Source: a virus (taxonomy: Duplodnaviria > Caudoviricetes). From it: 28,104 nucleotides of DNA. Made by a program: the position numbers and the translations under genes. Positions 85 through 22,781 of the stretch are shown piece after piece (the stretch's first letter is position 1; every line of letters begins with the position of its first letter). Under the pieces are notes generated by a model. It made no database searches and was not told the origin of the DNA. It worked only from the letters and a program-made list of their open reading frames with translations. Location: positions 1 through 28,104 of IMG/VR virus record IMGVR_UViG_3300032219_001957. The stretch is one strand, 5' to 3'.

Positions 85-159
85 TGGCGACCCTGAGGGG
101 AATCGAACCCCTATATTCCGCTAGACAGGCGGATATAATAACCACTATATGACAGGGCC
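85..159 (-). tRNA. tRNA-Asp(GTC)
   Basis: Cloverleaf GGCCCTG/CAGGGTC, anticodon arm TCCGC-CT GTC TA-GCGGA, T-loop TTCGATT, encoded CCA. Confidence 0.93.
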
Positions 160-164
160 AATAT

Positions 165-240
165 TGGCGCCGGGCGTGGTATTGAACCACATTCTCTTAA
201 GAATGATCAATTTCCTCAGACACACCATGTGAGACCCAGC
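165..240 (-). tRNA. aberrant tRNA-like gene (anticodon undetermined, possibly GAT)
   Basis: Acceptor GCTGGGT/GCCCGGC-G-CCA and T-arm GTGG-TTCAATA-CCAC present; minimal D-arm CACA-TGG-TGTG; irregular 8-9 nt anticodon loop ATTGATCA. Confidence 0.55.
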
Positions 241-247
241 ATTAATT

Positions 248-322
248 TGGTGGACCGTGAGAGGATCGAACTCTCACCTAGGACGTGCAAAGCCCCCGTG
301 CTCCCATTATCACTAACGGCCC
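248..322 (-). tRNA. tRNA-Ala(TGC)
   Basis: Cloverleaf with G3:U70 pair, loop TT TGC AC, encoded CCA. Confidence 0.95.
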
Positions 323-420
323 ATATATTTGAGACAGGTGTTTTACGAGACTCTACCTGCCAAGCTCGACGGTACGGTTGCATCCTTACCTGCAGGACGC
401 GAATGCAACTATCTAGCGTT

Positions 421-533
421 TGGTGGAGACAGCCTACACACAAGGATCCCTAATGTGCCGTACACTTTATCCGCTTATCTTAGCTACCTTCCAATACAGG
501 GAGGATTCATGCTAAAGATAAGTTTCAGTCTCC
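421..533 (-). ncRNA. CCA-terminated structured RNA, not a cloverleaf
   Basis: Terminal stem GGAGAC/GTCTCC followed by ACCA; internal hairpins CTTATCTTTAGC/GCTAAGATAAG and TACGGCACA/TGTGTGTA. Confidence 0.55.
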
Positions 534-743
534 AAAACTTGGTGGGTGGTGATACTAACGCTCCACGAGGCAACTTCCCAACTTAACAAAGCATAAATAG
601 ATGTGGTTAGGATATTGTACCACCAATATCTAACTCGAATCTTTATGACCCTTTCTACATTACCCATCCGTTGAATTGTGATCTTATACCTCACACTGAA
701 AACAACAAGAAGAAACACCGTTCTTCTATATCATATCAACAAT

Positions 744-873
744 TGGTGAGTGTAGTAAATGAATATGAAAAGTTGAGCAGGTCAGATTCGAACTGACACC
801 GGTTCCTAAGTAATGGGGTTACAGCCCACCGCGACACTAACCATATTCGCCTCTGCTCAACTTTTCATACTCC
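744..873 (-). tRNA. tRNA-Tyr(GTA)-like gene with 20-bp extended acceptor stem (core 774..859)
   Basis: Anticodon loop CT GTA AC, T-arm GTCAG-TTCGAAT-CTGAC; GAGTATGAAAAGTTGAGCAG pairs with CTGCTCAACTTTTCATATTC; CCA only 14 nt further 3'. Confidence 0.7.
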
Positions 874-879
874 ATATTT

Positions 880-956
880 TGGTACTCCCGGGTGGATTCG
901 AACCACCGACACGCGGCTTTGGAGACCGCTGTTCTACCAGGCTGAACTAAGGAGCC
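880..956 (-). tRNA. tRNA-Trp(CCA)
   Basis: Loop CT CCA AA, canonical D and T arms, CCA; acceptor stem imperfect. Confidence 0.85.
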
Positions 957-964
957 ATTTTAAA

Positions 965-1050
965 TGGCGAGATCACTAGCACCCCTCACACCGCATTCAA
1001 TATGATGAGGGCTAAGGCCGAATCACACGGCGAGCATGGTTGTGTATCTC
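965..1050 (-). ncRNA. CCA-terminated three-way-junction RNA
   Basis: GAGAT..CAC/GTG-ATCTC-G-CCA terminal stem; hairpins GCCG-TGTGATT-CGGC and CCCTCA/TGAGGG. Confidence 0.5.
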
Positions 1051-1059
1051 TAAAATTTG

Positions 1060-1243
1060 TGGTATGTTTTAGAATGATGACTGATAAAGCCTAGGCAGGG
1101 ATTGAGCCTACTCCTTCTGCCGTTTTCGGCAGACATGCATCCTTTACACTTCGAGGACCTAACTTAGCACCGCAGCAACGGGGGTCGTTAGTTCAGTCAA
1201 CAACCTACTGCTAAGTTGCTGCTTATCAGTCTAAAAAATACCA
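1060..1243 (-). ncRNA. ~180-nt structured RNA with embedded tRNA-like core and ACCA end
   Basis: Long terminal stem GGTAT-TTTTTAGA-CTGATAA / TTATCAG..TCTAAAA-C-ATACC-A; inside are D-like GTGT-AAAGGAT-GCAT, TCTGCCG-AAAA-CGGCAGA and T-like GTAGG-CTCAATC-CCTGC. Confidence 0.55.
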
Positions 1244-1350
1244 TATTGAAACACACTAATAAGAATCGCACTCCCTTAGTTCTTACACTAAGTTACGACA
1301 AGGAGTCACAGACTGGATCGGCAGTCCTGCTAGTTAATGTATTTCAATAT
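1243..1350 (-). ncRNA. structured RNA with 17-bp terminal stem
   Basis: ATATTGAAATACATTAA/TTAGTGTGTTTCAATAT with G-U pairs favouring the minus strand; inner hairpins GACTG/CAGTC and CTTAGT/ACTAAG. Confidence 0.5.
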
Positions 1351-1372
1351 AGTGTCTTTTTAAGACACTAAA

Positions 1373-1476
1373 AGCTAGGATTTTTCTGTCTCACAAGAGA
1401 GACTCCATCCTCTAGCCCGACCGTTTGTCCATGTTTTAAGTGCGGACTAGGACCTCGTTTCCCATACACACTTACT
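1373..1476 (-). promoter_or_regulatory. structured leader motif, copy 1 (boxA-like loop)
   Basis: Shares two identical 17-mers at identical spacing with 10880..10923; covarying stems; directly downstream of promoter 1499..1527. Confidence 0.65.
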
Positions 1477-1498
1477 GCTCACTACTTACTACACCAAC

Positions 1499-1527
1499 AT
1501 TATCTCATACTACTGATTTAATGTCAA
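1499..1527 (-). promoter_or_regulatory. sigma70-like promoter
   Basis: TTGACA-N17-GATAAT. Confidence 0.7.
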
Positions 1528-1724
1528 TCTCAGTTTTACGATACTGAGAAACGTCATGCCTGTCAGCTATCAGGCTGCTTTGCTACTTGCTATGAAAAAC
1601 TCTGTATCATTTCCCACCGTTTTTCGCTATCGCTACTCGGGCAGTTGATTTCTTCGTTTTTCACAGCATACAAGCATTATACAATCACCATTTATTGTCA
1701 AACTTCGACCTAAGATTTTTATTC

Positions 1725-1744
1725 TGGCGCGTCCGGAAGGATTC
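1725..1744 (-). pseudogene. 3'-terminal tRNA fragment (Arg-like)
   Basis: GAATCCTTCCGGACGCGCCA = half T-arm, 3' acceptor strand and CCA, fused to the stop codon of the endonuclease ORF. Confidence 0.7.
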
Positions 1745-2612
1745 ATCCTTTGCGCTTGAAACATTGATTTTCAAAAAATTCAGGGTGATAAGTTTTCATC
1801 CACCCGTTTATTTTTTGCGAAGAGATTCCCAATACTACTGCAACTTTTGACACCCAACCATATACTGAAAAATCCATATTGTGGTAAAAAATTTCATTTT
1901 TTCTAGATTCCCATTTTATCCGTGTTTGTTCTTTTATTTTCTGCCCTCTAGGTAGAGTGAAATTTTTTTTCTTGTTGTCTCTTATTTGTTTTGCTTCAAA
2001 GTATGATTCAACTATTCCTGAATTATCAAATGGTATATCGAAATTAAGAAATTGGGCAATTGCATCTTGCGAGAAACACTGTGAATAATGAACCTCAATG
2101 AGGCGCCATCCGGCTTGTTCAATCAAATTATGACGATTTTGATAGTATGTTTTTAACTTGCCAGCTCTATCGTAATGCTGATTTCCGTTTATTTCAATAC
2201 CCAATTTTATGTGGGGAAATGCAATATCGATTGAAAATGCACGATTTTCTAATGGAGTCAGTTCTTCAACAAATTGAATTCCTCGTTGTGTTAAATATTC
2301 TTTAACATTGTTGCAAGGAACTGAACTAAATTTATCCTTTCTTTTCCACGGATGTTTATTTGGATTTTCTTTTAGAAATTGTTTTCGTTTGTCAGAAAGA
2401 ATTTGTTTAGTGTCAATAGACACAGTATGAGCACACTTATTACTGCATGTTTTTCTTCTTCTACCTACAAACTCAGCTTCACATACTTGACATTTTTGAA
2501 TAAAATTCACTTTTTGTCGTTGTCTGTTTGGATTTTCATTACACCATCGACTATGTGCGCCTGCATTATTGGAATTTTCTATTTCAATCCCGCAGTATTT
2601 ACATTTAAACAT
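1743..2612 (-). CDS. Vsr/DUF559-like (very-short-patch-repair fold) homing endonuclease with N-terminal Zn-binding motifs
   Basis: CxxC motifs; FSIDIAFPHIKLGIEINGNQHY...RHNLIEQAGWRLIEV motif. Confidence 0.8.
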   Translation of the reverse strand: MFKCKYCGIEIENSNNAGAHSRWCNENPNRQRQKVNFIQKCQVCEAEFVGRRRKTCSNKCAHTVSIDTKQILSDKRKQFLKENPNKHPWKRKDKFSSVPCNNVKEYLTQRGIQFVEELTPLENRAFSIDIAFPHIKLGIEINGNQHYDRAGKLKTYYQNRHNLIEQAGWRLIEVHYSQCFSQDAIAQFLNFDIPFDNSGIVESYFEAKQIRDNKKKNFTLPRGQKIKEQTRIKWESRKNEIFYHNMDFSVYGWVSKVAVVLGISSQKINGWMKTYHPEFFENQCFKRKG

Positions 2613-2678
2613 TTCGAACTTCCTTTATTCAAACTAGGTGATCGTATTTATGCAATCAGTTCGAATTTTTAAAAATTA

Positions 2679-2754
2679 TGGTCAGCCCACCTGGACTCGA
2701 ACCAGGACTATAAATTTAGAAGAATTATGTGATATCCGCTTTCACTATGGGCTG
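2679..2754 (-). tRNA. tRNA-Arg(TCT)
   Basis: CAGCCCA/TGGGCTG, loop CT TCT AA, D-loop GGATA, CCA. Confidence 0.92.
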
Positions 2755-2771
2755 TGTATCGCAATGTAAAG

Positions 2772-2800
2772 AGTATACTCTATGTTGGATTTATTGTTAA
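2772..2800 (-). promoter_or_regulatory. sigma70-like promoter
   Basis: TTAACA-N17-TATACT upstream of tRNA-Arg(TCT). Confidence 0.6.
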
Positions 2801-2856
2801 AAACTTGGTATCATTCTCGTAAAGAATGTCTACCTTTAATGATAGCAGTATTTAAA

Positions 2857-3140
2857 TGGTTCCGGATGTCGGATTTGAACTGACGACCTACCGCTTACCT
2901 TACCACTTCGACTTTCGGCGCCGACTTTCGTCGTTCGTGGTCTGGACTTTGCCTTCACCGTTGCTTGCGCTTTAGGTGCCTGCCGTCAAGTCTCTACACC
3001 TTCAACAGTATTTCTACTGAAGCTTGGCTCGGCGTTATCATTTTACAGACTTCGCCGACTTTGACAGGTTCTACTCCCACCGTTTCCAATGGGGCACTCG
3101 TATATTCAAGGCGGTTGCTCTACCCCTGAGCTAATCCGGA
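2857..3140 (-). tRNA. tRNA-Thr(TGT), intron-containing (exons 3140..3108 and 2898..2857)
   Basis: Joined exons give TCCGGAT/ATCCGGA acceptor, ACCGC-CT TGT AA-GCGGT anticodon arm and CCA. Confidence 0.9.
2899..3107 (-). ncRNA. group I intron, 209 nt, compact IC3 (Azoarcus tRNA-Ile-like) type, no ORF
   Basis: Core motifs GGTGTAGAGACT.GACGGCA, CACCTAA, GGTGAAGGCA.AGTCCAG; P1 CTT|G-AATATA-CGAG with U.G at splice site; terminal G. Confidence 0.92.
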
Positions 3141-3164
3141 ATTGATACTAAAACAACTAAACTT

Positions 3165-3240
3165 TGGCTGGCTTACTTGGGTTCGAACCAAGGACAACCT
3201 GGTTAACAGCCAGGTGCTCTACCAACTGAGCTATAAGCCA
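3165..3240 (-). tRNA. tRNA-Asn(GTT)
   Basis: Canonical cloverleaf, loop CT GTT AA, CCA. Confidence 0.95.
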
Positions 3241-3274
3241 TCATAAAACTTTTTACAAAACTATTTATTAAATA

Positions 3275-3303
3275 AGTATAACTCAAAAACATTTCATTGT
3301 CAA
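3275..3303 (-). promoter_or_regulatory. sigma70-like promoter
   Basis: TTGACA-N17-TATACT upstream of tRNA-Asn. Confidence 0.75.
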
Positions 3304-3875
3304 TCTGTTTCCAACAACTCGCCTACCCGATCCATTACCATATCCCAATGATCCATGAATCTATGCCCACCTGTTTCAACCACACTAGTCATCGCAGTAT
3401 GCTTAAAATATTCTAGGGGAATCTCGTAAGGGATAACTTCATCATCTTTTGCTACAAACAGATTGATTAGGTTGCCATTGTACTCCCTCTCCGCATGTTC
3501 CCGCATACTTTTCATTGAATCTAAATGCGCTAACTCTACCATGAATTCTTCATTCGTGGCGTAGTTTTTATTCATGCCCAGCTTACTGCGAAGAGTTTCG
3601 CTGGGCTTACAGCTGGGGTTAACTAAGATTGCGGGCGTGTCGTGAATCATAGCATAATAGTTGGCATAGAAACCACCTAAACTAGTACCCACGAAAACTA
3701 ATTTCTTGAACCCGCTATAGTTTTCATGTATCAGCTTATACACTACATCGTCTACTTCTTCCGGGTCAAACGGCAGATCAGGGGCAAAAACATTTTCTGC
3801 GCCAAACTTTTCGCATAGCGCATCTACTTTACTACTATTGCCTGAACTACCAAAACTATGTAGATAGATTATCAT
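3300..3875 (-). CDS. YqiA/YcfP (UPF0227) family alpha/beta hydrolase (esterase)
   Basis: IIYLHSFGSS N-terminus, GTSLGG nucleophile elbow, DDEVI and GGHRF triad motifs. Confidence 0.88.
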   Translation of the reverse strand: MIIYLHSFGSSGNSSKVDALCEKFGAENVFAPDLPFDPEEVDDVVYKLIHENYSGFKKLVFVGTSLGGFYANYYAMIHDTPAILVNPSCKPSETLRSKLGMNKNYATNEEFMVELAHLDSMKSMREHAEREYNGNLINLFVAKDDEVIPYEIPLEYFKHTAMTSVVETGGHRFMDHWDMVMDRVGELLETD

Positions 3876-3906
3876 TTTGACCCCAGGAAATTCTTATTTA
3901 AGCTAT

Positions 3907-3935
3907 ATCTTATTACAAGGGGTATTTATTGTCAA
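3907..3935 (-). promoter_or_regulatory. sigma70-like promoter
   Basis: TTGACA-N17-TAAGAT. Confidence 0.55.
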
Positions 3936-3944
3936 ATATTAGGA

Positions 3945-4565
3945 TCATATATCACCCAGGACTTCTTTTGGATCTAGCCCCATACTTCTAAGTTGGGTTA
4001 TTCCTTCGGGCGATAAATTAACGAATCCCAGGATTAACTTTTCATGGGGTTCGCCCTGTATCAATCTAGTATAGTGAAACCCATCTGGGTTTAAATCTAA
4101 TACTTTTTTGCCTGTTAAAAACTCAGCAAATTTATTGGGTACTGGTTTGGCTCCCATCCTTAACATTAACTTTTCTGCCGGGCCACTTATTTCTACCCAA
4201 GCTCTGCTAAACGTTATGTCTTCGTGTTTGACCATCATGAGGTCTTTTTTGCCCTGTCTAGTTGCTACATATATATTCTTTTCGGGGTCTAACTCTGTTT
4301 CTGTTGCACTTGCAATCCCCTTCAAATTTTTAGTTTTTGCCACTAGCTTATATATGCCTAGCGCAGTTATTTTATCACCACGCTGCACCAGTTTCCAAAG
4401 TCCGGGGGTATCTATCAGTTCTTCGACGGCGGCTGCACTTTTGAACCCACCAACTTTTTGATAGGATTTGTTAAACATATCCCAAACTATGTCAGCATAC
4501 TCAGCCTTTTGTTCAGGAGTCCACAAATTGATTACCCGCTCTGCTAAAAATTCCAATGATTTCAT
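3945..4565 (-). CDS. hypothetical phage protein (ORF track starts at 4598; ATG 4565 preferred)
   Basis: Long ORF; ATG 4565 lies 5 nt after a TAAATA motif. Confidence 0.75.
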   Translation of the reverse strand: MKSLEFLAERVINLWTPEQKAEYADIVWDMFNKSYQKVGGFKSAAAVEELIDTPGLWKLVQRGDKITALGIYKLVAKTKNLKGIASATETELDPEKNIYVATRQGKKDLMMVKHEDITFSRAWVEISGPAEKLMLRMGAKPVPNKFAEFLTGKKVLDLNPDGFHYTRLIQGEPHEKLILGFVNLSPEGITQLRSMGLDPKEVLGDI

Positions 4566-4598
4566 AGTGGTATTTATCTTGGCATTGCGGATAATCAT

Positions 4599-5159
4599 TT
4601 AGGACAACAAAATTCTACTGTGTTTGGGAACGCCCGCTAACAAATATTCCATTTGATCCGCAAGAATGTTTCTGCTTTGTAGGATCATATTTTCAAAATG
4701 TGATGGCGCATAAGGGACGTATAACAGTTCCATACGGGCTTCTTTTAGCGTTTTGCTTCCTTTATTGGAGTTACAGGTTTTGCATGCAGTGATACAGTTA
4801 AGCCAAGTGTTTTGGCCGCCCCTACTTTTGGGGACAATATGGTCCCTACTCAGGTTATTAACATTGGGGAAATGTCCACCGCAGTACGCACAAACATTCC
4901 TATCTCTACCGAACAGTGTTCGGTTGGATAATGCCACAGTTGCATGTTTGTGTGGGTTGAAACCCTGGCCCTTGATCGCAATTATACTAGGAGTTTCGAT
5001 GTAACTCATTGTACCATCTTGCTGAATGCCGCCCCGATATTTAGCCACAATTTCACCCATGCTCCAAGCTACAGATTTTGTGGCGTGGTATGCGATTGCA
5101 TCATCATATCCTATCCATTGTCTAGGTGTTCCTGAAATATCCAATGCTAATACGGGCAC
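4599..5159 (-). CDS. HNH endonuclease (McrA-like, HNH_5 type)
   Basis: LFGRDRNVCAYCG...SRDHIVPKSRGG...WLNCITACKTCNSNKG; GTG start with AGGAG RBS. Confidence 0.92.
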   Translation of the reverse strand: MPVLALDISGTPRQWIGYDDAIAYHATKSVAWSMGEIVAKYRGGIQQDGTMSYIETPSIIAIKGQGFNPHKHATVALSNRTLFGRDRNVCAYCGGHFPNVNNLSRDHIVPKSRGGQNTWLNCITACKTCNSNKGSKTLKEARMELLYVPYAPSHFENMILQSRNILADQMEYLLAGVPKHSRILLS

Positions 5160-5206
5160 GATAAACTCCTTTTTAATTGGTACTTGTACCTCTATTTACT
5201 ACAAAT

Positions 5207-5246
5207 TGGCGGGTCATGAGAGATTCGAACTCCCGACTACTGGTTT
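5207..5246 (-). pseudogene. orphan 3' half of a tRNA
   Basis: AAACCAG-TAGTC-GGGAG-TTCGAAT-CTCTC-ATGACCC-G-CCA; the 5' half is replaced by the upstream region of the endonuclease gene. Confidence 0.8.
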
Positions 5247-5259
5247 GATAAATAAACAT

Positions 5260-5949
5260 ATGAATACTTGTAAACATTGTAAAAATATCATCCCACCAGT
5301 TAAATATAAAAAACTATTTTGCACGAAAAGTTGTGCGGCAAAATTTAATAATTTAAATCGATCTCCTCGAACCTATGAATCAAAACAAAAAACATCTGCT
5401 ACTTTAAAAAATTTAATCGTCACAGGAGCGATACCAACACCTATTCCCCCAAAAAGATATCCATATCCTTATACTAAATTATACGGGCAATATATCTGTC
5501 ATTCTTGTGATAAGAATTTTTGGCAAATCTCTGCTGGGCAAAAATGCTGCTCAATTTCTTGTCGAGACAACATTCGTTCGCAAAATAAATGTAAGAAAAC
5601 GCAAATTGCGTACTACAATAAAAATGACAACTGTATTGTAAATTTACAGTCTACATGGGAAGTCAAAATTGCAATTTGGTTAGACGATAATAATATTGTA
5701 TGGTCTCGTCCATCTAAACGTATTAAATGGTACGATACTACTCTACAAAAATACAGAACATATCTTCCTGACTTTTATCTCCCAAATTATGATTATTATT
5801 TAGATGTTAAAAATCCAGTTAAAATGGAAGAGGATAAGGATAAACTTACTCAATTAATTTCTCTTATGCCTTTGTGTGTAGGTAACATACCAGAAATTAA
5901 AAAATATGTGGAGGGCCTGACAGGGGTCGAACCTGCATGTATCCATTAG
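5260..5949 (+). CDS. PD-(D/E)XK-type homing endonuclease with Zn-binding motifs (ORF track start 5026 is too early)
   Basis: QSTWEVKIAIWLD...YLPDFYLPNYDYYLDVK; CxxC repeats; ATG 5260 follows TAAATA; 3' end overlaps a tRNA antisense. Confidence 0.82.
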   Translation: MNTCKHCKNIIPPVKYKKLFCTKSCAAKFNNLNRSPRTYESKQKTSATLKNLIVTGAIPTPIPPKRYPYPYTKLYGQYICHSCDKNFWQISAGQKCCSISCRDNIRSQNKCKKTQIAYYNKNDNCIVNLQSTWEVKIAIWLDDNNIVWSRPSKRIKWYDTTLQKYRTYLPDFYLPNYDYYLDVKNPVKMEEDKDKLTQLISLMPLCVGNIPEIKKYVEGLTGVEPACIH

Positions 5950-5986
5950 CTTTCTCTTGGTTCGAAGCCAAGCGGCATACAGACCC
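5909..5986 (-). tRNA. non-canonical tRNA-Arg(TCG), D-loop displaced 3' of the anticodon arm
   Basis: GGGTCTG/CAGGCCC-T-CCA; CTTGG-CT TCG AA-CCAAG 7 nt after acceptor; AGCTAATGGATA before T-arm. Confidence 0.75.
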
Positions 5987-5992
5987 AATATT

Positions 5993-6089
5993 TGGTAGTA
6001 GACCAGGGATTCGAACCCTGCCGTTCCAGCCCATCTGACCAGTCTCCGGGAATTATAAAGCCCCGCCGCACAACCAAGTGCTGTCTACC
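5993..6089 (-). tRNA. tRNA-Ile(TAT)-like gene with long variable arm
   Basis: GGTAGAC/GTCTACT-A-CCA; CGGGG-C-TT TAT AA-T-TCCCG; ~25-nt variable region. Confidence 0.7.
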
Positions 6090-6092
6090 ATT

Positions 6093-6175
6093 TGGCGGAT
6101 AGTATAGGATTCGAACCCATGTTCTCTTTCGAGCCGCCTTATCAAGACGGTGCCTAACCATTCGGCCAAAGCGGC
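6093..6175 (-). pseudogene. chimeric tRNA: Ile(GAT) body with non-matching Ser-like 3' acceptor strand
   Basis: 5' GCCGCTT cannot pair with 3' ACTATCC-G-CCA; D, anticodon (TT GAT AA), variable (CTC-GAAA-GAG) and T arms intact. Confidence 0.7.
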
Positions 6176-6226
6176 AAATAAATCCTTTATGTTTTTACAG
6201 GCATACGCTGGAATGACCACACTAGC

Positions 6227-6769
6227 TCACCCTCCTTTTTCTTTCCAACGATGCTTTTGCTTCATTATTTCTGAATGTCTTTTTTTGTACTCATCCGAAA
6301 AAGGTTTTCTTTCTCTAGATTTTGCCTTTTCTGAAATTTTAGCGCGAGTTTCATCAGAAATTGAATGACCTTTCTGACCTTTCATTTTACAAGAAATTTT
6401 TTGTTTTTGCTCCTCAGACATTGGTTTGCCTTTAGTAGCTTCACTTCTAATAATGCTATATTCTTTTTTAATCGTTTCGTATAAACGAGCATTTATATAA
6501 CGATATTGTTTTGATGTAGAACCTTTCATAAGCATTAAAGCATGGAGCATTTTAACATAATTTGGTTTATTATTTTTATTGATTTTAACTAATAAAACAT
6601 GACATACGAAATGTTCTTTCGCTGTCAATAAAACCAAATTATCTTTTTTATTACTTCCTCCCAATGATTTAGGAATAACATGATGGTTTTCAAAATAGCC
6701 TAGTTTTCTGTCTCTATTTTTAGAACGCGCATTTTGTATAATGTCATGGTATATTTTTTCGTAGTTCAT
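6227..6769 (-). CDS. HNH homing endonuclease with NUMOD3 repeats
   Basis: ENHHVIPKSLGGSN..NLVLLTAKEHFVCH; KGKPMSEEQKQKIS and HSISDETRAKIS. Confidence 0.92.
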   Translation of the reverse strand: MNYEKIYHDIIQNARSKNRDRKLGYFENHHVIPKSLGGSNKKDNLVLLTAKEHFVCHVLLVKINKNNKPNYVKMLHALMLMKGSTSKQYRYINARLYETIKKEYSIIRSEATKGKPMSEEQKQKISCKMKGQKGHSISDETRAKISEKAKSRERKPFSDEYKKRHSEIMKQKHRWKEKGG

Positions 6770-6812
6770 AAAAATCCCTTAACATTATTTATTCCTTTAA
6801 CACTAGGTAAGC

Positions 6813-6989
6813 TTATTTTGTTACTACTTTTTTAAGCGCATCTTTTCGCATAAGCATAACTCTGACGTTGCCCATGCGAGTCACTCTAATATATTCTACA
6901 CCTTCAATAATTTCTGGATTCTTGAGGTCAATATCTGAGCATTCAACTTTTTCTTTATTCCAGATATTTTCAAATGTCAATGTTTTCAT
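6813..6989 (-). CDS. small hypothetical protein, 58 aa (not in ORF track)
   Basis: MKTLTFENIWNKEKVECSDIDLKNPEIIEGVEYIRVTRMGNVRVMLMRKDALKKVVTK; GGAG RBS upstream. Confidence 0.7.
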   Translation of the reverse strand: MKTLTFENIWNKEKVECSDIDLKNPEIIEGVEYIRVTRMGNVRVMLMRKDALKKVVTK

Positions 6990-7057
6990 CACGCAACTCC
7001 ATTAAATTTTGGGGTGACAAATATTTATCGAACTCTAAACAAATAATAAATAATAAT

Positions 7058-7918
7058 ATGTATAAACTAATAAACTGCGCTATTTGCCATCGTGACTTTA
7101 ATGGTCAAATATCAGGCAGTCATCTAAAAACTCACGGCACAAATATTCGTGACTACGAACTAAAATACGGCCCAACACGCGACCCTCAACTTATAATCGA
7201 TACCAAGCTTGGTGGCAAGAAAGGAGGAGGCGGAAATCAAAAATCCATTGATGCCAGCAAAATCAAGAGCCAAAAACAACAAGAAAAATATCTATTAAAT
7301 CCAAAAATTTGTTTTACTTGTTCTGAATTGATCCCGTATAATAATCGGTATAATAAGTTTTGTTCTCATTCTTGTTCTGCTATATCTAATAATAGACAAC
7401 GAATTGAATCTGGCTGGACTTTGTCGCAAGAAAGTAGGGATAGCATTCGACACAAACTTTCGAAGCCATCGATCTTTTTTGGACCGTATAGCAGGATATC
7501 TACTAAAACTTGTAAATTTTGCAGAACCCAATTCATTACACCGACTACTAATCAACCTCAAGTATGTAAGAATTGCCAACATCTAAAATGGAATAATAAT
7601 AAAGATCAGTACTCATTTAGATTTAATATATTTAATTATCCTGATTTGTTCGATTTAGATAATTTAACCAAAATAGGATGGGTAGCATTTGGCGGGAAGC
7701 GAGGAGGAAAGAAAAATGTTAATGGGTTATCCCGTGATCATCGCGTCTCGGTAAATGAAGCAAAAAAATTCAATTATGATCCTCACTATATATCACATCC
7801 ACTAAATTGTGAACTAATGCCGCACCATCAAAATAATAAAAAGAAAACAAAATCATCACTATCTTACGAAGAACTAGTTAAATTAGTTGACGAATATGAT
7901 AATAGGGGTGACCACTGA
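7058..7918 (+). CDS. HNH-type homing endonuclease with Zn-binding motifs (ORF track start 6974)
   Basis: SRDHRVSV...ISHPLNCELMPHHQNNKK; CxxC motifs; ATG 7058 lies 5 nt after TAAATA. Confidence 0.8.
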   Translation: MYKLINCAICHRDFNGQISGSHLKTHGTNIRDYELKYGPTRDPQLIIDTKLGGKKGGGGNQKSIDASKIKSQKQQEKYLLNPKICFTCSELIPYNNRYNKFCSHSCSAISNNRQRIESGWTLSQESRDSIRHKLSKPSIFFGPYSRISTKTCKFCRTQFITPTTNQPQVCKNCQHLKWNNNKDQYSFRFNIFNYPDLFDLDNLTKIGWVAFGGKRGGKKNVNGLSRDHRVSVNEAKKFNYDPHYISHPLNCELMPHHQNNKKKTKSSLSYEELVKLVDEYDNRGDH

Positions 7919-7979
7919 GAAGTTTCACTCAGACTATAACTTTCACAGAGTTAGGTGCCTATTTTACACTATGATCACC
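7904..7979 (-). tRNA. tRNA-His(GTG)
   Basis: G-1 GTGATCA/TGGTCAC-C, loop CT GTG AA; atypical T-loop TGAAACTT; ends CCT rather than CCA. Confidence 0.85.
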
Positions 7980-8000
7980 CCTATTATCACATTGATCCAC

Positions 8001-8122
8001 GGGATACATTTTTTAGACGAATGCTCTACCCCTGAGCTACTATACAATATGTTTCCATATCATACAGGGTGGATTTGAACCACCGACCAACCGTTTTCAA
8101 AATATTTTGCTGTTAGTATCCC
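8001..8122 (-). ncRNA. YrlA/Y-RNA-like circularly permuted tRNA mimic
   Basis: Terminal stem GGGATAC/GTATCCC; order T-arm, acceptor stem closed by a GAAA loop, D-arm. Confidence 0.75.
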
Positions 8123-8128
8123 AAATTT

Positions 8129-8204
8129 TGGTCTGGGTAGCAGGATTTGAACCTAGACCTCTTGACTCCAGATCAAGAACGCTACCAAGTTACGCTATAG
8201 AGAG
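8129..8204 (-). tRNA. tRNA-Pro(TGG) with defective 5' acceptor strand
   Basis: D-arm GCGT-AACTTGGT-AGCG, loop TC TGG AG, 3' TACCCAG-A-CCA; 5' strand CTCTCTA is the end of the HNH ORF. Confidence 0.65.
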
Positions 8205-8656
8205 TTATTCTTTTTCCAAGATTCTATATATGAAAGAACCTTATCTTCAATTAATGATCGGTACTTACTATGCCAATATTGATGATGCGTTGGGCATAGC
8301 GGTATTAAATTTAATGAGTGATTATTTTTCTTGTTATGATCCATATGGTGGACTGCGACTATTTTATCTTCACCGCATACAACACATTTTCTTTCATGAT
8401 GTTCAAAGCAGGTTGTTTGGTATCTTTCTGGCTTCCAATTGCCGTGGTTTTCCCCTGTTCTGAACAATTTATTAGCGCAAGCGTGGGAACATGATCCTTT
8501 CGACTCTCGCCAATTAAAAATTGGATTATCGCATATTTTGCACAATCTAATATTATCAGGATGCAAATGGCAGACGGCATCATGTCTTGAAACACTGTGT
8601 GGGAAAATTAATTTCTCACAATGCTTGCATTTAATTTTTGATGATTGCAGTAACAT
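8195..8656 (-). CDS. HNH homing endonuclease
   Basis: CVVCG...VAVHHMDHNKKNNHSLNLIPLCPTHHQYWH; AGGAG RBS. Confidence 0.92.
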   Translation of the reverse strand: MLLQSSKIKCKHCEKLIFPHSVSRHDAVCHLHPDNIRLCKICDNPIFNWRESKGSCSHACANKLFRTGENHGNWKPERYQTTCFEHHERKCVVCGEDKIVAVHHMDHNKKNNHSLNLIPLCPTHHQYWHSKYRSLIEDKVLSYIESWKKNNSL

Positions 8657-8708
8657 AAATTATCTCCTGATTGTATTTATCACAAACGGAGAGATTTGAA
8701 CATCAATT

Positions 8709-8745
8709 CAAGCTGTGCCGTCTACCAAGTTGACAATATACCCAG
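8709..8745 (-). pseudogene. 5' half of a tRNA-Pro
   Basis: CTGGGTA-TAT-TGTC-AACTTGGTA-GACG-G-CACAG-CTTG then breaks; T-loop remnant GTTCAAATCTCTCC follows. Confidence 0.7.
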
Positions 8746-8846
8746 TTAATTCTTGACTGCCCGCCCCCAACCACGCTAGCAGCCTTGCTCAGCCTTGAAG
8801 TAGCTGTGCCCCTATAACTTTTGACGCCTTAGTGCGTCGATAGTTC

Positions 8847-9245
8847 TTACAAATCTAATGCTGTTAAAAGCTTTTTCATTACTAGAGTATTAGGATCACG
8901 AAACTTTTCAGTATCTTGAAACCCCAAAAGAACACCTGCTTGTGTTACTGCACCACTACGGTATATACCAGCCATGCAGTGTACTACAACATTCATTCTA
9001 TTGTCAAGTGCATGTACCAACAATCTAGCAATTTTTTCTGCTTGCTCATCATTGATTGGTGTAGCCCAAGACAATTGTTCTTCTACATCATCAAATTTAA
9101 ATCTATGTACTTCACGAAAATTACGCTTAGACCTAGGAAAATCAACTATAGGATCTACAATCTGTATAAGCATAGCGTTAGGTCCAGGCTCAAAATGATG
9201 ACCTGCTTGAATATCTTCAAACGAAACATTTTCAATCCAAGGCAT
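8847..9245 (-). CDS. protein-tyrosine/dual-specificity phosphatase family protein
   Basis: VVVHCMAGIYRSGAV = HCxxGxxRS P-loop; FDD acid loop. Confidence 0.88.
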   Translation of the reverse strand: MPWIENVSFEDIQAGHHFEPGPNAMLIQIVDPIVDFPRSKRNFREVHRFKFDDVEEQLSWATPINDEQAEKIARLLVHALDNRMNVVVHCMAGIYRSGAVTQAGVLLGFQDTEKFRDPNTLVMKKLLTALDL

Positions 9246-9264
9246 GATTTTGTCCTTAAAAATT

Positions 9265-9341
9265 TGGTAGAGACAGCCGGGATCGAACCGGCGACCTCGG
9301 GCTTATGAGACCCGCGTTACTTCCAACTGAACTATGTCTCC
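9265..9341 (-). tRNA. tRNA with CAT anticodon (elongator Met or Ile2)
   Basis: Cloverleaf, loop CT CAT AA, CCA; no C1:A72 initiator mismatch. Confidence 0.9.
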
Positions 9342-9375
9342 ATATTATACAACAGATAAAATGATTATTTGTCAA

Positions 9376-9452
9376 TGGTACCCTAGGGGAGATTTGAACT
9401 CCCAATTCCTACGTGCTCAACGTAGTGACTCTACCAATTCGTCCACTAGGGC
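9376..9452 (-). tRNA. tRNA-Leu(GAG) lacking the long variable arm
   Basis: CTACG-TT GAG CA-CGTAG, 5-nt variable loop, A73, CCA. Confidence 0.85.
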
Positions 9453-9459
9453 ATTAATT

Positions 9460-9550
9460 TGGCAGTGAGTGAGGGATTCGAACCCTCGCGCCGTATAATA
9501 CGACCATCATCTTTCCAGGATGCTCCCTTAAGCCTCTCGGGCAACTCACT
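9460..9550 (-). tRNA. tRNA-Ser(GGA)
   Basis: Type II cloverleaf, loop CT GGA AA, G73, CCA. Confidence 0.93.
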
Positions 9551-9551
9551 A

Positions 9552-9626
9552 TGGTGTTCAGTACTGGAATTGAACCAGTGACCTCTATCGTGTCAAGATA
9601 GCGTTCTTCCGCTGAACTAACCGAAC
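9552..9626 (-). tRNA. tRNA-Val(GAC)
   Basis: Cloverleaf, loop TT GAC AC, CCA. Confidence 0.93.
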
Positions 9627-9632
9627 AATCTA

Positions 9633-9706
9633 TGGTGCTCCCAGCTGGTAACGCTCCAGCTTCTCGGCTATACCAAAGCCGTGTAATTCTTTTATACTAT
9701 GAGAGC
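9633..9706 (-). tRNA. tRNA-Thr(GGT)
   Basis: Loop TT GGT AT; atypical T-loop AGCGTTA; CCA. Confidence 0.85.
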
Positions 9707-9712
9707 CAATAG

Positions 9713-9821
9713 TGGAGCAGCTAACTATCTACCTGAGTAGACCTTATTAGCGGGTCACAAATAAAGAAGTATGTAGGGGCTCAACTTTATCGTCTAGCTC
9801 AAAAATTTGCTGTTAGCATCC
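9713..9821 (-). ncRNA. putative ncRNA sharing the GGAT(A/G)CTAACAGCAAA 5' motif with 8001..8122
   Basis: 5' GGATGCTAACAGCAAA; 3' GTTAGCTGCTCCA can pair with it; no tRNA-like domain. Confidence 0.45.
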
Positions 9822-9827
9822 TTAAAC

Positions 9828-9907
9828 TGGCACGCCCGGAAGGCTTCGAACCTTCATGTATCCAGTTAACCTTTCAACTGGTTCGTAGCCAGAGGGTATA
9901 CAGACGC
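9828..9907 (-). tRNA. non-canonical tRNA-Arg(ACG), D-loop displaced 3' of the anticodon arm
   Basis: GCGTCTG/CGGGCGT-G-CCA; CTGG-CT ACG AA-CCAG; GGTTAACTGGATA before T-arm; same layout as 5909..5986. Confidence 0.75.
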
Positions 9908-10568
9908 TTTTAATTTTTTCATATATCTATAATGTACGCCACTATCATTTAGCCCTAGGTGAAATAAAGCGGGTCTAATTTTACCATCGAACAGTCTTAA
10001 CGCACTTATCTTTTCTTCGTCGGAGAAATACATTTTCTGTTTTTTCTGTCTAATAGGTCCAGCAGGTTTACAATTAGTACACCATTTCGCTTTATGTGAT
10101 TTAGTGTCGTCACTGCAAACTATACATTGGGTGGTTTTTTAGTTTCACTTATTTTTTTTACATATCTTCCCTTAACCCAGCCGGTAGGTATATCACAATC
10201 AGTGAATTTACCATTTTCAAGAGTTATTGGGTTAGTATACCATTTTTTACCAAAACTTCCGTTTTTTGCGCCCAGTCGTTGTTTAGCGACAAGACTGTTT
10301 CTTCGTCTCAACCAACCGTAAAGTTTGTTTGATTTTCTTCCGGCGCACATCATAATGGCAGCATAGACCAACCCTTTATGGTTTGGGTGTATTTTAACTA
10401 ACAACTGATGGCGATGTAATGTTCTTCTAATGTCAGTTTGACAATATTTTTTGGATCATTATCACCTCCCATACATCTTGGGATAATATGATGATTTTCA
10501 AATTCATCAATAGTTATTCTCTGCTGCGCCCTGTATATCAATTTATCATATATGGTTTTGTAGTTCAT
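9866..10568 (-). pseudogene. HNH homing endonuclease with two frameshifts (~10413 and ~10135)
   Basis: Frame 1 MNYKTIYDKLI...ENHHIIPRCMGGDNDPKNIVKLTLEEHYIA; frame 2 HQLLVKIHP...WYTNP...GWVKGR; frame 3 CIVC...KASVYPLATNQLKG ends inside the tRNA. Confidence 0.82.
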
Positions 10569-10602
10569 TAAGTATTTAACTTTTGCGAACTAGATATATA
10601 AA

Positions 10603-10641
10603 TTCGTAGCCAAGTACTCTGGTCCACTGAGTTACGGGCGT
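10603..10641 (-). pseudogene. 5' half of a canonical tRNA-Arg(ACG)
   Basis: ACGCCCG-TA-ACTC-AGTGGACCA-GAGT-A-CTTGG-CT ACG AA then breaks. Confidence 0.85.
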
Positions 10642-10647
10642 ATTATT

Positions 10648-10721
10648 TGGCAGGGGTATCAGGATTTGAACCTAAACTACTTCAGTCAAAGTGAAGGGTG
10701 CTGCCGTTACACTATACCCCA
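10648..10721 (-). tRNA. tRNA-Gln(TTG)
   Basis: Cloverleaf, loop CT TTG AC, CCA. Confidence 0.93.
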
Positions 10722-10814
10722 ATTGACACACTCTTACGAATGTGTGTAGTAAAGCATACCAAGTCTTAAAGTCCAACGATGATTTTACGACCAGCCTGAT
10801 ATGCTTTACTACTC

Positions 10815-10928
10815 TACCATTTTACCATCTATGTTAACGCCATAGACTTCTCATCCGGTAGGCCGCCCTCATTATAGCCCCATGTTTTAAGTGCGGGGCA
10901 GGATCGCGTTTCCCATACACACTCACTA
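10815..10928 (-). promoter_or_regulatory. structured leader motif, copy 2 (boxA-like loop)
   Basis: AGTGTGTATGGGAAACG and CCGCACTTAAAACATGG identical to copy 1; stem GCCCC/GGGGC versus GTCC/GGAC. Confidence 0.65.
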
Positions 10929-10931
10929 CAT

Positions 10932-10967
10932 AACAAAAAACCCTGAGACCTTTCGATTCTCAGGGTT
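10932..10967 (-). terminator. intrinsic terminator (attenuator) ahead of the tRNA array
   Basis: AACCCTGAGA-ATCGAAAGG-TCTCAGGGTT running into TTTTTTGTT. Confidence 0.85.
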
Positions 10968-11007
10968 AAGATAAAAGTGTATTTTTACATTTTACCTGTT
11001 CCCTGAG
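10960..11007 (-). promoter_or_regulatory. antiterminator hairpin mutually exclusive with the terminator
   Basis: CTCAGGG-AAC-AGGTAAAA-TGTA-AAAA-TACA-C-TTTTATCT-TAA-CCCTGAG, 19 pairs; sequesters the terminator 5' arm. Confidence 0.75.
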
Positions 11008-11123
11008 TGTCCTCTTTGGACATTATAACCTCGGATACTTGTGGGCATTACCTTCGCAAAGGATTGCCCGGCCGATAATGACCAAAGTTCCATATGCTGG
11101 GTAATAGTTGAAAAGTTATTCAT
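10992..11123 (-). CDS. putative attenuator leader peptide, 43 aa (not in ORF track)
   Basis: MNNFSTITQHMELWSLSAGQSFAKVMPTSIRGYNVQRGHSGNR; ATG 7 nt after TAAATA; stop codon inside the antiterminator 5' arm. Confidence 0.7.
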   Translation of the reverse strand: MNNFSTITQHMELWSLSAGQSFAKVMPTSIRGYNVQRGHSGNR

Positions 11124-11190
11124 AGTAAGTTATTTAGTCTAAAGTTAAAAAAATGATTAATTACTGCTGTTTTTTAATGATTTGAAGTGG

Positions 11191-11219
11191 ATTATACACG
11201 GGGATGATTATTTTGTCAA
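11191..11219 (-). promoter_or_regulatory. consensus sigma70 promoter upstream of the leader ORF
   Basis: TTGACA-N17-TATAAT. Confidence 0.85.
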
Positions 11220-20387: not shown

Positions 20388-21476
20388 TTAAAGTTTGCAC
20401 GACTCGCAGCCATCTTCCTCGTCAAAATTAATAGGCTCTAGTGTTTCAGATGGGTAATCTTCTTTAAGTGATTTACTTCCTTGTTTATTCACCAAACTGT
20501 AATAGAAGGTCTTGATTCCGAGACGATGTGCTTCCATTAGGTTTTTAGCGATTAGGGTAGTTGGTATTTTACGGTCCGGAAAATGTGCTGGATTATAAAA
20601 AGTATTCACCGAAATACTTTGATCAACATAGGCCGCTAACACAGCCGCTGTTTTCAAATAATCAGCACAGTCCTTTTGGTCCCACATTAATTGATACTTT
20701 GATTTCAATTTATGATACTCAGGAACTACTTGTACAAATGATCCTGCTTTGCTTTCTTTTACTGAAATCAAAGACATCGGCATTTCTATACCGTTAGTCG
20801 AGTTAATAACTACTGAGGAACTTTCCACGGGCGCGATAGCGGAATTTGTAGCATTACGTACCCCTGATATTATCATGCGGGCCCGCAGAGGCTCCCAATC
20901 TAATTCCGGAGTAAAATCGGCTAAGTCATTGACCCCGTTGGCGCGTAGTTCCCAGGGAAAAATACCCTTACCATATCTAGTTTGGTCACTATTCAAACAT
21001 TTTCCCCGTTCTTCGGCAAGTTCAACAGACATTTCAGTCAAATAAAAGGTTTGATGTTCCATCCAAGATTTTACTTCTTGAAGTGAGTCTTGATTCCCAT
21101 ATTTTAGGCCCCGCTTGGCATGCCAATACGCCAAATTAGTAACTCCAATGCCCAATGGACGAATCTCATCATTGCTTAATTTAGACTGGATAGATAAGAA
21201 ATCTTGATAATCAAGTATGTTATTGAGGCTACGGTGTAAGATTCTACAGGCTCGGCGCATATCTTCTGGGTGTCTAAAACTCCCCCAATTAATGCTTCCC
21301 AATGTACATAGGGATATTCGGCCGGTATCATCATCTAATCTTTTAAAACTTTTTGTGGGCAAAAGTATCTCGCAATTATGGACAAGAATGTTGTCGGCAA
21401 AGAAACACTTTGTTTCAGGGACTGATATGTCAAATACATCAGTTGGCTCTACTGCAATCTTTCTAATTTTAATCAT
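20388..21476 (-). CDS. nrdA: NrdA part 3: IntC2 (21476..21375, 34 aa) + C-terminal extein
   Basis: VFDISV..FFADNILVHN|CEILLP; LGIGVTNLA, APVESSS, KTFYY, terminal CESCKL. Confidence 0.95.
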   Translation of the reverse strand: MIKIRKIAVEPTDVFDISVPETKCFFADNILVHNCEILLPTKSFKRLDDDTGRISLCTLGSINWGSFRHPEDMRRACRILHRSLNNILDYQDFLSIQSKLSNDEIRPLGIGVTNLAYWHAKRGLKYGNQDSLQEVKSWMEHQTFYLTEMSVELAEERGKCLNSDQTRYGKGIFPWELRANGVNDLADFTPELDWEPLRARMIISGVRNATNSAIAPVESSSVVINSTNGIEMPMSLISVKESKAGSFVQVVPEYHKLKSKYQLMWDQKDCADYLKTAAVLAAYVDQSISVNTFYNPAHFPDRKIPTTLIAKNLMEAHRLGIKTFYYSLVNKQGSKSLKEDYPSETLEPINFDEEDGCESCKL

Positions 21477-21610
21477 ACGCTAATTCTTCCTAATTTGTAT
21501 TCTGAATTGTTTTTACAAAATTCTTCTTCGTTAGTAACCCTAACATTTTTTTCGCCGTTGTTATACCAACGATGTTTTGATGAGTGTTCGGCTGCAATTT
21601 TTCTTTGTTC
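21473..21610 (-). pseudogene. C-terminal remnant of a homing endonuclease
   Basis: Startless frame EQRKIAAEHSSKHRWYNNGEKNVRV...YKLGRISV; its TGA overlaps the nrdA part 3 ATG. Confidence 0.7.
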
Positions 21611-21611
21611 A

Positions 21612-22781
21612 TTATTTTTCAATACATAACTCGTCAGTTTCTACTAATTCATCAGCCCTAACATATCCTCTGTTCTTAGTGAAGACCCGATGATCGCCTG
21701 TGCAGCGTAAAACATTCCCAGTTTCGTCTTCAATCTCGTATAGTTCAGTAACTGACTTTGTTTTGATTGCCGCAGACACATTTTCCCAGGAAACTTCGCC
21801 GTTCTTAAAACTTTTAATTTTTGAGTTAGTCAGGGCTCCTAGCTCAAATCTCTCAACGGCACTAGACATAGACATTTGTTCAATGTCTCCATTCTCGTGC
21901 TGGAAAGTAATTTGTGTATCACCGGTTACACAACAAAGATTACTTTGGTATATAGGATCAACCTTCGTATCAAATGGGCCCTGTCGCTGAACATTGTCGA
22001 TATATGTTAAATATATTCTACCTGTGTCAGTTCTTTCTTTTAGTATTCCGCCCTTGAATACTTCCTCAGCACTCATTGTTTTCTTTCGAATATCAGTGCG
22101 TTTTTCGTATGTTACATATAGGGTCTCAAATAAATCAATGTCGCTATAAAATGCCTCATACAGGTCAGGAACTTCATTGGGATCAAAGAATGTAATATTA
22201 CCTTGCTCTTTGAACCTGCGCCAAAAGAATGCTGATAATACTACATTATAGTCCATGTGCCTAACACGAGTTTCCTCAGTACCTTGATTATTCTTTAATA
22301 CAATCAAATCATCAAACTGGTAATGCCAGATGGGATAGGTAATTGTTGCGCTAGCATTACGAATACCACCTTGGGAGTTGTGAGTTAACACCATAGGGCC
22401 TTCGGCGCTTGCCGAGGCAAAGAAAGTATGAGTATCTTCTACTGTGATATCAATATATCCCAGATCGTTTTGTTGATTGGTATGAGCAACCAATAATTTA
22501 GTGAATCCAATTTCTGTGAGCACCCGATCTTCTACTGTAAGTTCCTGTGGTTTCTTTTGTACGAAGGAACCTGAATCTGACCAAACCATTATAGGATGAT
22601 TAATCGAACAGTTCAGTATTACTCCGTTTTGAAATTCCAATCGAACTTGATCATCATGTTTGACGATAGTGTCCCATTTGTTAGTGACTTCTTTAAAGAC
22701 AACAAACCCCTTCTCAGTCATAGTTTTAATCTTCATGCCCACTACTAGGTCTTTAATTTGAATCTTTTTAGTTTTTGCCAT
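21612..22781 (-). CDS. nrdA: NrdA part 2: IntC1 (22781..22377, 135 aa) + middle extein + IntN2 (21932..21612, 106 aa)
   Basis: YIDITVEDTHTFF..VLTHN|SQGGIRN...YQSNLC|CVTGDT...CTGDHRVFTKNRGYV. Confidence 0.95.
   Translation of the reverse strand: MAKTKKIQIKDLVVGMKIKTMTEKGFVVFKEVTNKWDTIVKHDDQVRLEFQNGVILNCSINHPIMVWSDSGSFVQKKPQELTVEDRVLTEIGFTKLLVAHTNQQNDLGYIDITVEDTHTFFASASAEGPMVLTHNSQGGIRNASATITYPIWHYQFDDLIVLKNNQGTEETRVRHMDYNVVLSAFFWRRFKEQGNITFFDPNEVPDLYEAFYSDIDLFETLYVTYEKRTDIRKKTMSAEEVFKGGILKERTDTGRIYLTYIDNVQRQGPFDTKVDPIYQSNLCCVTGDTQITFQHENGDIEQMSMSSAVERFELGALTNSKIKSFKNGEVSWENVSAAIKTKSVTELYEIEDETGNVLRCTGDHRVFTKNRGYVRADELVETDELCIEK

Follow-up and report, generated by a model that had tools for sequence, protein, structure and literature searches.

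The leader locus and its tRNA array

The stretch of DNA analysed here (the window, 28,104 nucleotides in full) is a 28-kb piece of a large phage that carries split ribonucleotide reductase genes, a PAAR protein and many HNH or homing endonucleases. A tRNA array occupies the minus strand from 10721 to the contig end, in which ARAGORN found 12 genes and Rfam more. The nearest cultured matches of the window's NrdB are from Xanthomonas and Stenotrophomonas phages (56–60% identity), and these matches, together with the sigma70-type promoters, loosely indicate a proteobacterial host. The leader region ahead of the array was without variants in one spanning contig of a possible source sequencing run, and the contigs of three other runs miss its ORF. 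The ribonucleotide reductase alpha subunit (26469..20388) is distributed over several ORFs around the gene of a 917-aa homing endonuclease, followed by a second endonuclease. The features at the head of the array and behind it, in the order of transcription, are as follows.

11191..11219, minus strand: sigma70-type (early) promoter, TTGACA-17-TATAAT, 12 of 12 matches
11131..11137, minus strand: CTAAATA, 7 nt ahead of the ATG; likely a late promoter of the T4 type
10992..11123, minus strand: 43-codon leader ORF, a broad codon and amino-acid sampler
11014..11087, minus strand: ORF-body hairpin, CTTTGG/CCAAAG in the window copy, ACTTGT/ACAAGT with inner stems in the family; candidate pause hairpin
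10959..11007, minus strand: antiterminator of 19 pairs, its 5' arm being the last five codons and the stop; −20.3 kcal/mol
10932..10967, minus strand: intrinsic terminator, GAAA-capped stem and U tract; −16.2 kcal/mol
10722..10927, minus strand: conserved structured non-coding block directly after the terminator; its 5' part recurs at 1476..1429
9376..10721, minus strand: first block of the tRNA array, with Gln(UUG), a split Arg(ACG)-like gene with an HNH gene, Thr(GGU), Val(GAC), Ser(GGA) and Leu(GAG); precedes the next consensus promoter
9345..9375, minus strand: internal promoter-like site, TTGACA-19-TATAAT, which could bypass the proposed switch; others at 3935, 3303 and 1701
85..9341, minus strand: remainder of the tRNA array, with HNH genes and introns interspersed, running to the contig end

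The first tRNA of the array, Gln(UUG) (10721..10648), lies 211 nt behind the terminator, and the conserved structured non-coding block fills the space between them. This block is a structured RNA of ~110–200 nt (GGAAACG..CACTnnAAACA..GGGCGG) that precedes tRNA arrays; the window has two copies (10927..10722 and 1476..1365), and relatives lie at L262, L264, L266, L272, L281, L288, L291 and L293. Among 10 sequences, 11 of its 20 predicted pairs are changed on both sides, a pseudoknot is possible by eye, and a comparison with Rfam gave no match.

Several tRNA genes of the array appear to have homing endonucleases in or beside them. At 10640..9828, the 5' half of a tRNA-Arg(ACG) comes before an HNH gene (10568..10120, in two frames), behind which an odd tRNA-like element repeats the anticodon arm; an odd Arg(UCG)-like element similar to the split Arg one lies at 5986..5909. 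A tRNA gene at 3140..2857 holds a group I-like intron of ~210 nt (Rfam 34.7 bits, below the cut-off). The tRNA-like gene with a long variable arm at 6089..5993 is given a stop (TTA) anticodon by ARAGORN at lowered threshold and by eye may be Ile(UAU), and weak YrlA (Y RNA-like) and tmRNA-like Rfam matches (24.8 bits) fall within the array at 8114..7995.

The initial annotation, made from the sequence of the window, had proposed a leader-peptide attenuator in front of this array, consisting of a perfect TTGACA-N17-TATAAT promoter, an unannotated 43-codon ORF, a 19-pair hairpin that overlaps its stop, and an intrinsic terminator excluded by that hairpin. All four are present. The promoter (11219..11191) is the sole perfect one in the window, with a chance expectation of 0.05, and the terminator (10967..10932) is confirmed by folding and by relatives. 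The predicted product of the ORF (11123..10992), MNNFSTITQHMELWSLSAGQSFAKVMPTSIRGYNVQRGHSGNR, is 43 aa long and uses 18 amino acids (no C, no D) and 34 distinct codons. An ATG ORF of such length occurs in 2.8% of 5000 shuffles of the 218-nt leader. The counts of amino acids and codons given by the initial annotation are correct, but they differ in weight. The use of 18 of 20 amino acids is ordinary at 43 codons, being found in 31% of 5692 segments of this length from this phage's genes, and we rejected it as an unusual property of the window copy alone. By contrast, 34 distinct codons in 43 are found in 0.35% of these segments and in 12% under uniform codons; in a separate codon test, P is 0.004–0.09 depending on the null.

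A family of leaders with conserved frame and amino-acid content

The first relatives came from pattern scans. A peptide alignment of eight rows, which carries no information on RNA structure or tRNAs, then recovered 54 viral loci. These reduce to 43 non-identical loci and to 25 representatives at less than 85% amino-acid identity, one of them (L261) carrying the window's leader. As the seed pattern spanned the F..SI stretch, conservation there results partly from the choice of matches. Two pattern scans of metagenome contigs gave 0 matches, and a scan of genome contigs with a four-row alignment gave 41 pattern matches, with 0 confirmed. Rfam has no match over 10932–11219 at E up to 5, and four relatives yield only tRNAs at the gathering score; Pfam and PHROGs returned nothing meaningful for the leader peptide, the one weak match being to a holin (E 0.0085, in one of eight rows).

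The layout is conserved. The ORF is 43–46 codons long and the terminator arm lies 27–36 nt behind the stop in all 43 non-identical loci. tRNAs are found downstream in 47 of the 54 loci, the remaining seven having at most 613 nt of DNA left, and a tRNA is found upstream in only one. The leader is present as one copy in each of the five contigs searched, and in five relatives it stands ahead of all 28–48 tRNA genes in the stretch examined, which cover 19–20 isotypes. When array heads were sampled by their tRNAs first, the leader was found at many and was absent from many others, the available flanks being uneven. The initial annotation had suggested looking ahead of related tRNA arrays for a short ORF, a conserved stop position and an antiterminator with covariation, and this combination is what the family displays.

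Several observations indicate that the ORF, situated between promoter and tRNA genes, is under coding selection. All 43 loci stay in frame despite length changes between the ATG and the Thr-Ser codons, pN/pS is 0.58, and both alternative frames are blocked in all 25 representatives. The leader peptides have a mean identity of 59%, with S-I-R-G nearly invariant. In L293, a one-base insertion in the antiterminator arm shifts the stop three codons downstream.

The family also preserves its composition. All 20 amino acids occur in 20 of 25 representatives and in 34 of 43 loci, compared with 1.2–1.8% of gene segments and with a mean of 8.2 (of 25) after column shuffling, where 0 of 5000 shuffles were as high, although these counts do not equal probabilities since the sequences are related. 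In the same shuffle test, 82 windows from six neighbouring protein families reached a maximum z of 2.3 against 5.5 for the leader; one control window of six sequences equalled the leader's raw excess (0.66 vs. 0.65). In the protein database, all 20 amino acids are present in 43 of 47 full-length matches (12 of 59 matches were excluded as incomplete or extended), and Cys, His and Trp reappear at other positions when they are missing from their usual column. Glu is found in 25 of 25 representatives without a fixed column (P 0.0007) and Val is marginal (P 0.026); no other residue is significant alone. Distinct codons average 35.2 vs. 31.4–33.3 expected for the same peptides. RNA pairing explains some of the amino-acid conservation, namely at Thr-Cys, Thr-Ser and Pro/Arg-Gly. 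The absence of any run of a single amino acid, noted earlier for the window copy, is borne out in the family, whose leaders have 17–20 amino-acid types and 31–38 distinct codons. With the full amino-acid set kept, codon diversity raised and arrays that span 19–20 amino acids, the broad-sensor idea of the initial annotation is better supported than the window alone allowed. The window copy is one of the five exceptions among the 25, as it has neither Cys nor Asp, yet its own array has a tRNA-Asp.

Beyond this family, we collected terminators using a pattern blind to ORFs and tRNAs, which gave 122 loci, or 100 distinct ones after removal of duplicates and short flanks. An ORF of 20–75 codons ending 20–36 nt upstream was found for 30 of the 35 terminators followed by tRNAs vs. 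3 of the 65 others, with the distance window set after viewing the data and the loci not independent; an antiterminator fold was found for 32 of 35 vs. 12 of 65. The leader peptides of these terminators belong to several unrelated families, many with 19–20 amino acids and mostly without TAAATA.

Comparable leaders are also found in cultured phages. Xanthomonas phage X1 (OQ427096.1, 135559–135678, L341) has TAAATA-N5-ATG and an unannotated 39-codon ORF with 19 amino acids, followed by an antiterminator and a terminator, and 38 tRNAs lie behind this unit; its analogue in Xanthomonas phage BUDD keeps the ORF length and stop and has 18 amino acids. Stenotrophomonas phage Mendera (MN098328.1, 80761–80844, L339) has an unannotated 27-codon ORF with 16 amino acids inside the array, ahead of an antiterminator and an annotated terminator. 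Of the 15 amino acids served by the tRNAs behind it, this ORF contains 14, and it is present in 16 records of the Mendera group. Searches of cultured phages by blastn with the leader region and by tblastn with the family peptide gave no match, and the X1 and Mendera leaders are therefore treated as analogues and not as shown homologues. The scan found no leader at the array of Ralstonia phage RSP15 or at the heads of Mendera's two clusters.

Exclusive hairpins and the promoters around them

The antiterminator (11007..10959) captures CCCTGAG, the 5' arm of the terminator, so that the two folds exclude each other. When the upstream 68 nt were shuffled, 0 of 1000 sequences folded as well and 39 paired the 7-nt core, and the whole-leader fold of the window copy has a z of −3.5. 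Across the family, 99% of 200 terminator cells are paired, with three pairs changed on both sides. The 7-pair core of the antiterminator is paired in 171 of 175 cells in a helix-anchored register, and one core pair is U-A in five rows, C-G in 19 and mismatched in one, a pattern that requires three changes on the tree. In the MAFFT alignment the paired cells amount to 83.7%, a value reduced by a one-base register shift in seven rows. A simple terminator scan missed this terminator, probably owing to its loop limit of 8. Sequence and covariation point to the elements expected of an attenuator: a predicted U-tract terminator, and an antiterminator that excludes it and is overlapped by a ribosome near the stop.

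Folds within the ORF body had also been proposed. The CTTTGG/CCAAAG stem is indeed part of the minimum free energy structure of the window copy; however, the relatives have a different conserved hairpin, and CTTTGG/CCAAAG was rejected as the conserved body fold because it is particular to the window copy. The family hairpin has 24 pairs, of which 84% are paired and 11 changed on both sides, the structure having been drawn from the same sequences. The window copy keeps 14 of the 24 family pairs, the lowest number among the 25, having lost the ACTTGT strand through a deletion that also removed the Cys codon. Segment 2 is not part of the conserved body hairpin. It is held instead by a weak and variable helix, the 1:2 protector, in which the IRG codons may pair with the antiterminator arm (mean −8.4 vs. 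−19.9 kcal/mol), and support for a strong protector of the trp type is weak.

Folding predictions suggest that any switch would depend on the order of events. In transcripts cut before the 3' arm of the terminator and free of ribosomes, the antiterminator forms with P of at least 0.93 in 23 of 25 representatives. With a modelled ribosome, for which the A site plus 9 nt were held single-stranded as an assumed footprint, the antiterminator survives as long as the ribosome is no further than about codon −7, and is lost when the ribosome stands anywhere between codon −6 and the stop. The amino-acid content follows nearly the same limit. After trimming the end of the ORF by six codons, 18 of 25 representatives still have all 20 amino acids, which falls to nine after seven codons and to five after eight. 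By about seven codons ahead of the stop the full set has been reached. This position agrees with the boundary predicted by folding (codons −7 to −6), within a one-codon doubt on the assumed footprint and with the last codons helix-constrained anyway. At equilibrium, by contrast, the terminator is the preferred fold of the complete RNA without ribosomes in 23 of 25 representatives, the window copy being near 50:50, and with a modelled upstream ribosome the terminator is still favoured in many, the window copy included. Equilibrium folding of the full transcript was discarded as a switch model, as it gives no clean switch. Since the terminator wins at equilibrium, the switch, if real, must be kinetic, with the antiterminator kinetically trapped.

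Two promoter elements stand before the ORF. A TTGAC..TAnnnT site lies 58–106 nt before the ATG in 41 of the 43 non-identical relatives, and TAAATA-N6-8-ATG is found in all 43, although for two of them this ATG was chosen over an earlier in-frame ATG. The TAAATA element had been listed by the initial annotation, and its presence stands while its role is revised to that of, most likely, a late promoter. The T4 late box TATAAATA occupies −13 to −6 and its version in Aeh1 is CTAAATA, according to the available text of PMC1524935. With the spacing of the T4 box, transcription is predicted to start 2–3 nt before the ATG in the leader family and at the ATG in X1 and Mendera. TAAATA is, by this analogy, probably a T4-type late promoter that gives a near-leaderless mRNA. 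Weak matches to a gp55-like sigma factor were found in G001 (E 2e-5) and G002 (E 4e-6), and gp55-like genes also occur in X1 and Mendera; none was found in G003, a 35%-complete genome. The window copy is without a Shine-Dalgarno sequence, and AGGA is present in 40 of 43 loci. Genome-wide enrichment of TAAATA-N6-8-ATG was considered and found unsupported, with a count of 15 vs. 11 in the control. TAAATA also lies 6 nt before the ATG of real genes without Shine-Dalgarno sequences, at 4576 and 20356 in the window and at L321, L323, L326, L327, L329 and L330 in G001, the terminase gene of G001 being among those behind such a box, and leaderless late mRNAs are possible in these phages.

Further promoter-like sites lie behind the terminator. 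In the window the next promoter is at 9375, so that the non-coding block and about six tRNA genes would rely on the promoters at the head. A second TTGAC promoter-like site lies at most 145 nt behind the terminator in 36 of 43 loci, and the arrays of five relatives contain 6–14 internal promoter-like sites each. The suggestion of the initial annotation that internal promoters may limit the switch to the first part of the array is right, and the effect is larger than it stated. With promoters behind the terminator and inside the arrays, the switch may govern little of the tRNA output. Judged from the sequence, the promoter layout speaks against a strict gate, and the switch would act as a booster.

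Proposed attenuation, its alternatives and known systems

Layout, frame-preserving coding evolution, compensated helices and a high-diversity codon content covering all 20 amino acids emerge from the comparison of relatives. We consider it likely that the conserved leader ORF and its overlapping hairpins act as a ribosome-mediated attenuator, which would raise transcription of the tRNA array in response to a decoding failure at any codon or amino acid. The conserved layout, stop position and covariation lend support to the trp/his-type logic proposed by the initial annotation. On the growing RNA, the antiterminator is predicted to form first unless a ribosome is at the last six codons or the stop. 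During normal decoding, a ribosome would get there in time to block the antiterminator, as predicted by folding, and this would leave the 5' arm of the terminator free and end transcription at 10932. An earlier stall at a missing or cleaved tRNA would leave the antiterminator intact, and RNA polymerase might then read into the tRNA genes. The ORF-body hairpin may pause the polymerase so that the ribosome sets the timing. Late in infection, the TAAATA late promoter could route most transcription of the array through the switch, and internal sigma70 promoters could give an ungated early tRNA supply. Since there are one or two codons per amino acid, a response to severe tRNA loss, such as that caused by a host anticodon nuclease, would be expected more than a response to mild starvation.

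A fuller reading, to which we give about an even chance, is that large phages encode a decoding test. A near-leaderless late mini-gene, holding every amino acid and as many codons as possible upstream of the footprint boundary, would report the loss of any tRNA (e.g., to host anticodon nucleases) and switch up a full set of replacement tRNAs. The design would recur in unrelated families with its content tuned to the array, and would represent an inducible counter-defence and the first attenuator on tRNA genes.

Alternatively, the leader may be a ribosome-controlled attenuator that reads general ribosome availability or speed (through leaderless initiation, coupling, antibiotics or host shut-off), or that depends on arrest by the YPTSIRG peptide, rather than on single tRNAs. 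One codon per amino acid is a weak sensor compared with classical codon runs, the antiterminator is likewise predicted to be the first fold of an untranslated leader in 23 of 25 representatives (P at least 0.93), and a published uORF attenuator monitors ribosome availability, according to the available text of PMC12218461. However, sensing of general speed needs no full amino-acid set, whereas this set is kept by moving residues, in several unrelated families, and ends at the predicted boundary. The near invariance of S-I-R-G would suit peptide arrest, but TS is explained by pairing and the IRG codons can pair weakly with the antiterminator arm. We regard this alternative as unlikely, though it survives best of those considered.

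It is also rather doubtful that, in a family of real attenuators, the window copy is decaying and no longer a broad sensor. Its lack of Cys and Asp, of the ACTTGT strand and of the AGGA motif would agree with decay; on the other hand, its promoter is perfect, its frame is intact, 34 distinct codons are present, its antiterminator is fully paired and another body fold has taken the place of the lost one (whole-leader z −3.5). Slightly less probable again is that the ORF encodes a trans-acting small protein or RNA, with the terminator merely ending the transcript and the tRNAs using their own promoters. Such a role could account for the promoters right behind the terminator in 36 of 43 loci, the 59% mean identity of the peptide and the terminator favoured at equilibrium, but not for a compensated antiterminator that overlaps the stop, a layout shared by unrelated peptides or a composition conserved more than position, and the peptide belongs to no meaningful Pfam or PHROGs family. 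An RNA switch thrown by a protein or an RNA (a phage late factor, or a tRNA that binds the leader when uncharged or cleaved), with translation secondary, is very improbable. The large conserved body hairpin (11 of 24 pairs changed on both sides) is a possible binding site, and control by infection stage would fit the link to a late promoter; against this, selection acts on frame, stop position and composition, and no Rfam family, T-box included, matches the leader.

For the near-complete tRNA sets of large phages, the main answers have been codon adaptation and replacement of host-depleted tRNAs. If attenuation by decoding failure is true, an array turned up in this way would argue for tRNA replacement on demand, the phage would sense tRNA-targeting defences without a protein sensor, and attenuation would be widened from one amino acid to twenty, with tRNA genes as its output. 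The unannotated analogues in cultured phages (X1, BUDD and the Mendera group) make this idea testable, and a 250-nt reporter of all-tRNA stress is a potentially useful tool.

T-boxes bind one uncharged tRNA directly and need no ORF. The proposed phage attenuator would resemble them in tying a terminator/antiterminator switch to tRNA status, but unlike a T-box it has an ORF and no Rfam match. Work on phage tRNAs as counter-defence provides a rationale, as hosts cleave tRNAs at infection and phage tRNAs replace them: the tRNA-Lys of T5 counters PARIS (PMC11464382), and changes in the anticodon loop let phage tRNAs escape host tRNases (PMC10264068). Both papers, as far as their main texts go, treat tRNA function and not transcriptional control, and attenuation and leaders are absent from those texts. 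Among uORF attenuators that sense translation inhibition, such as the S. meliloti DUF1127 leader (PMC12218461) and the vmlR and mef/msr leaders, impaired uORF translation likewise raises downstream expression; unlike the phage leader, they answer antibiotics or ribosome availability and control protein genes, as described in the available text. The DUF1127 leader, the nearest general sensor, acts via C-rich codons at the start of the uORF, and selection for a full amino-acid set is not mentioned in the available text of that paper. In the openly searchable literature, as covered by listings and abstract openings, no description of leader-peptide attenuation of phage tRNA arrays was found.

The leaders trpL, hisL, thrL and leuL, the multivalent leader of ilvGMEDA and pheM of pheST are leader-peptide attenuators. 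Unlike the amino-acid operon attenuators, the phage element has phage tRNA genes downstream and no biosynthetic or synthetase genes, and its leader has no codon runs and devotes one or two codons to each amino acid, up to 20 of them; the E. coli pheL leader has a run of seven Phe codons (PMC3082878, available text). With pheL-type attenuators, as far as the same text describes them, the phage leader shares the short leader ORF and the mutually exclusive 2:3 antiterminator and 3:4 U-tract terminator, a ribosome at the stop is predicted to favour termination here as well and an upstream stall read-through, and the upstream hairpin could be a pause structure. It differs from the pheL class in its weak 1:2 protector, its probably near-leaderless late transcript and the internal promoters that bypass it. 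It differs also in that the ORF itself supplies the 5' arm of the antiterminator and the stop, so that nearly the whole ORF is the predicted sensing zone. The element is probably a variant of ribosome-mediated attenuation not previously described.
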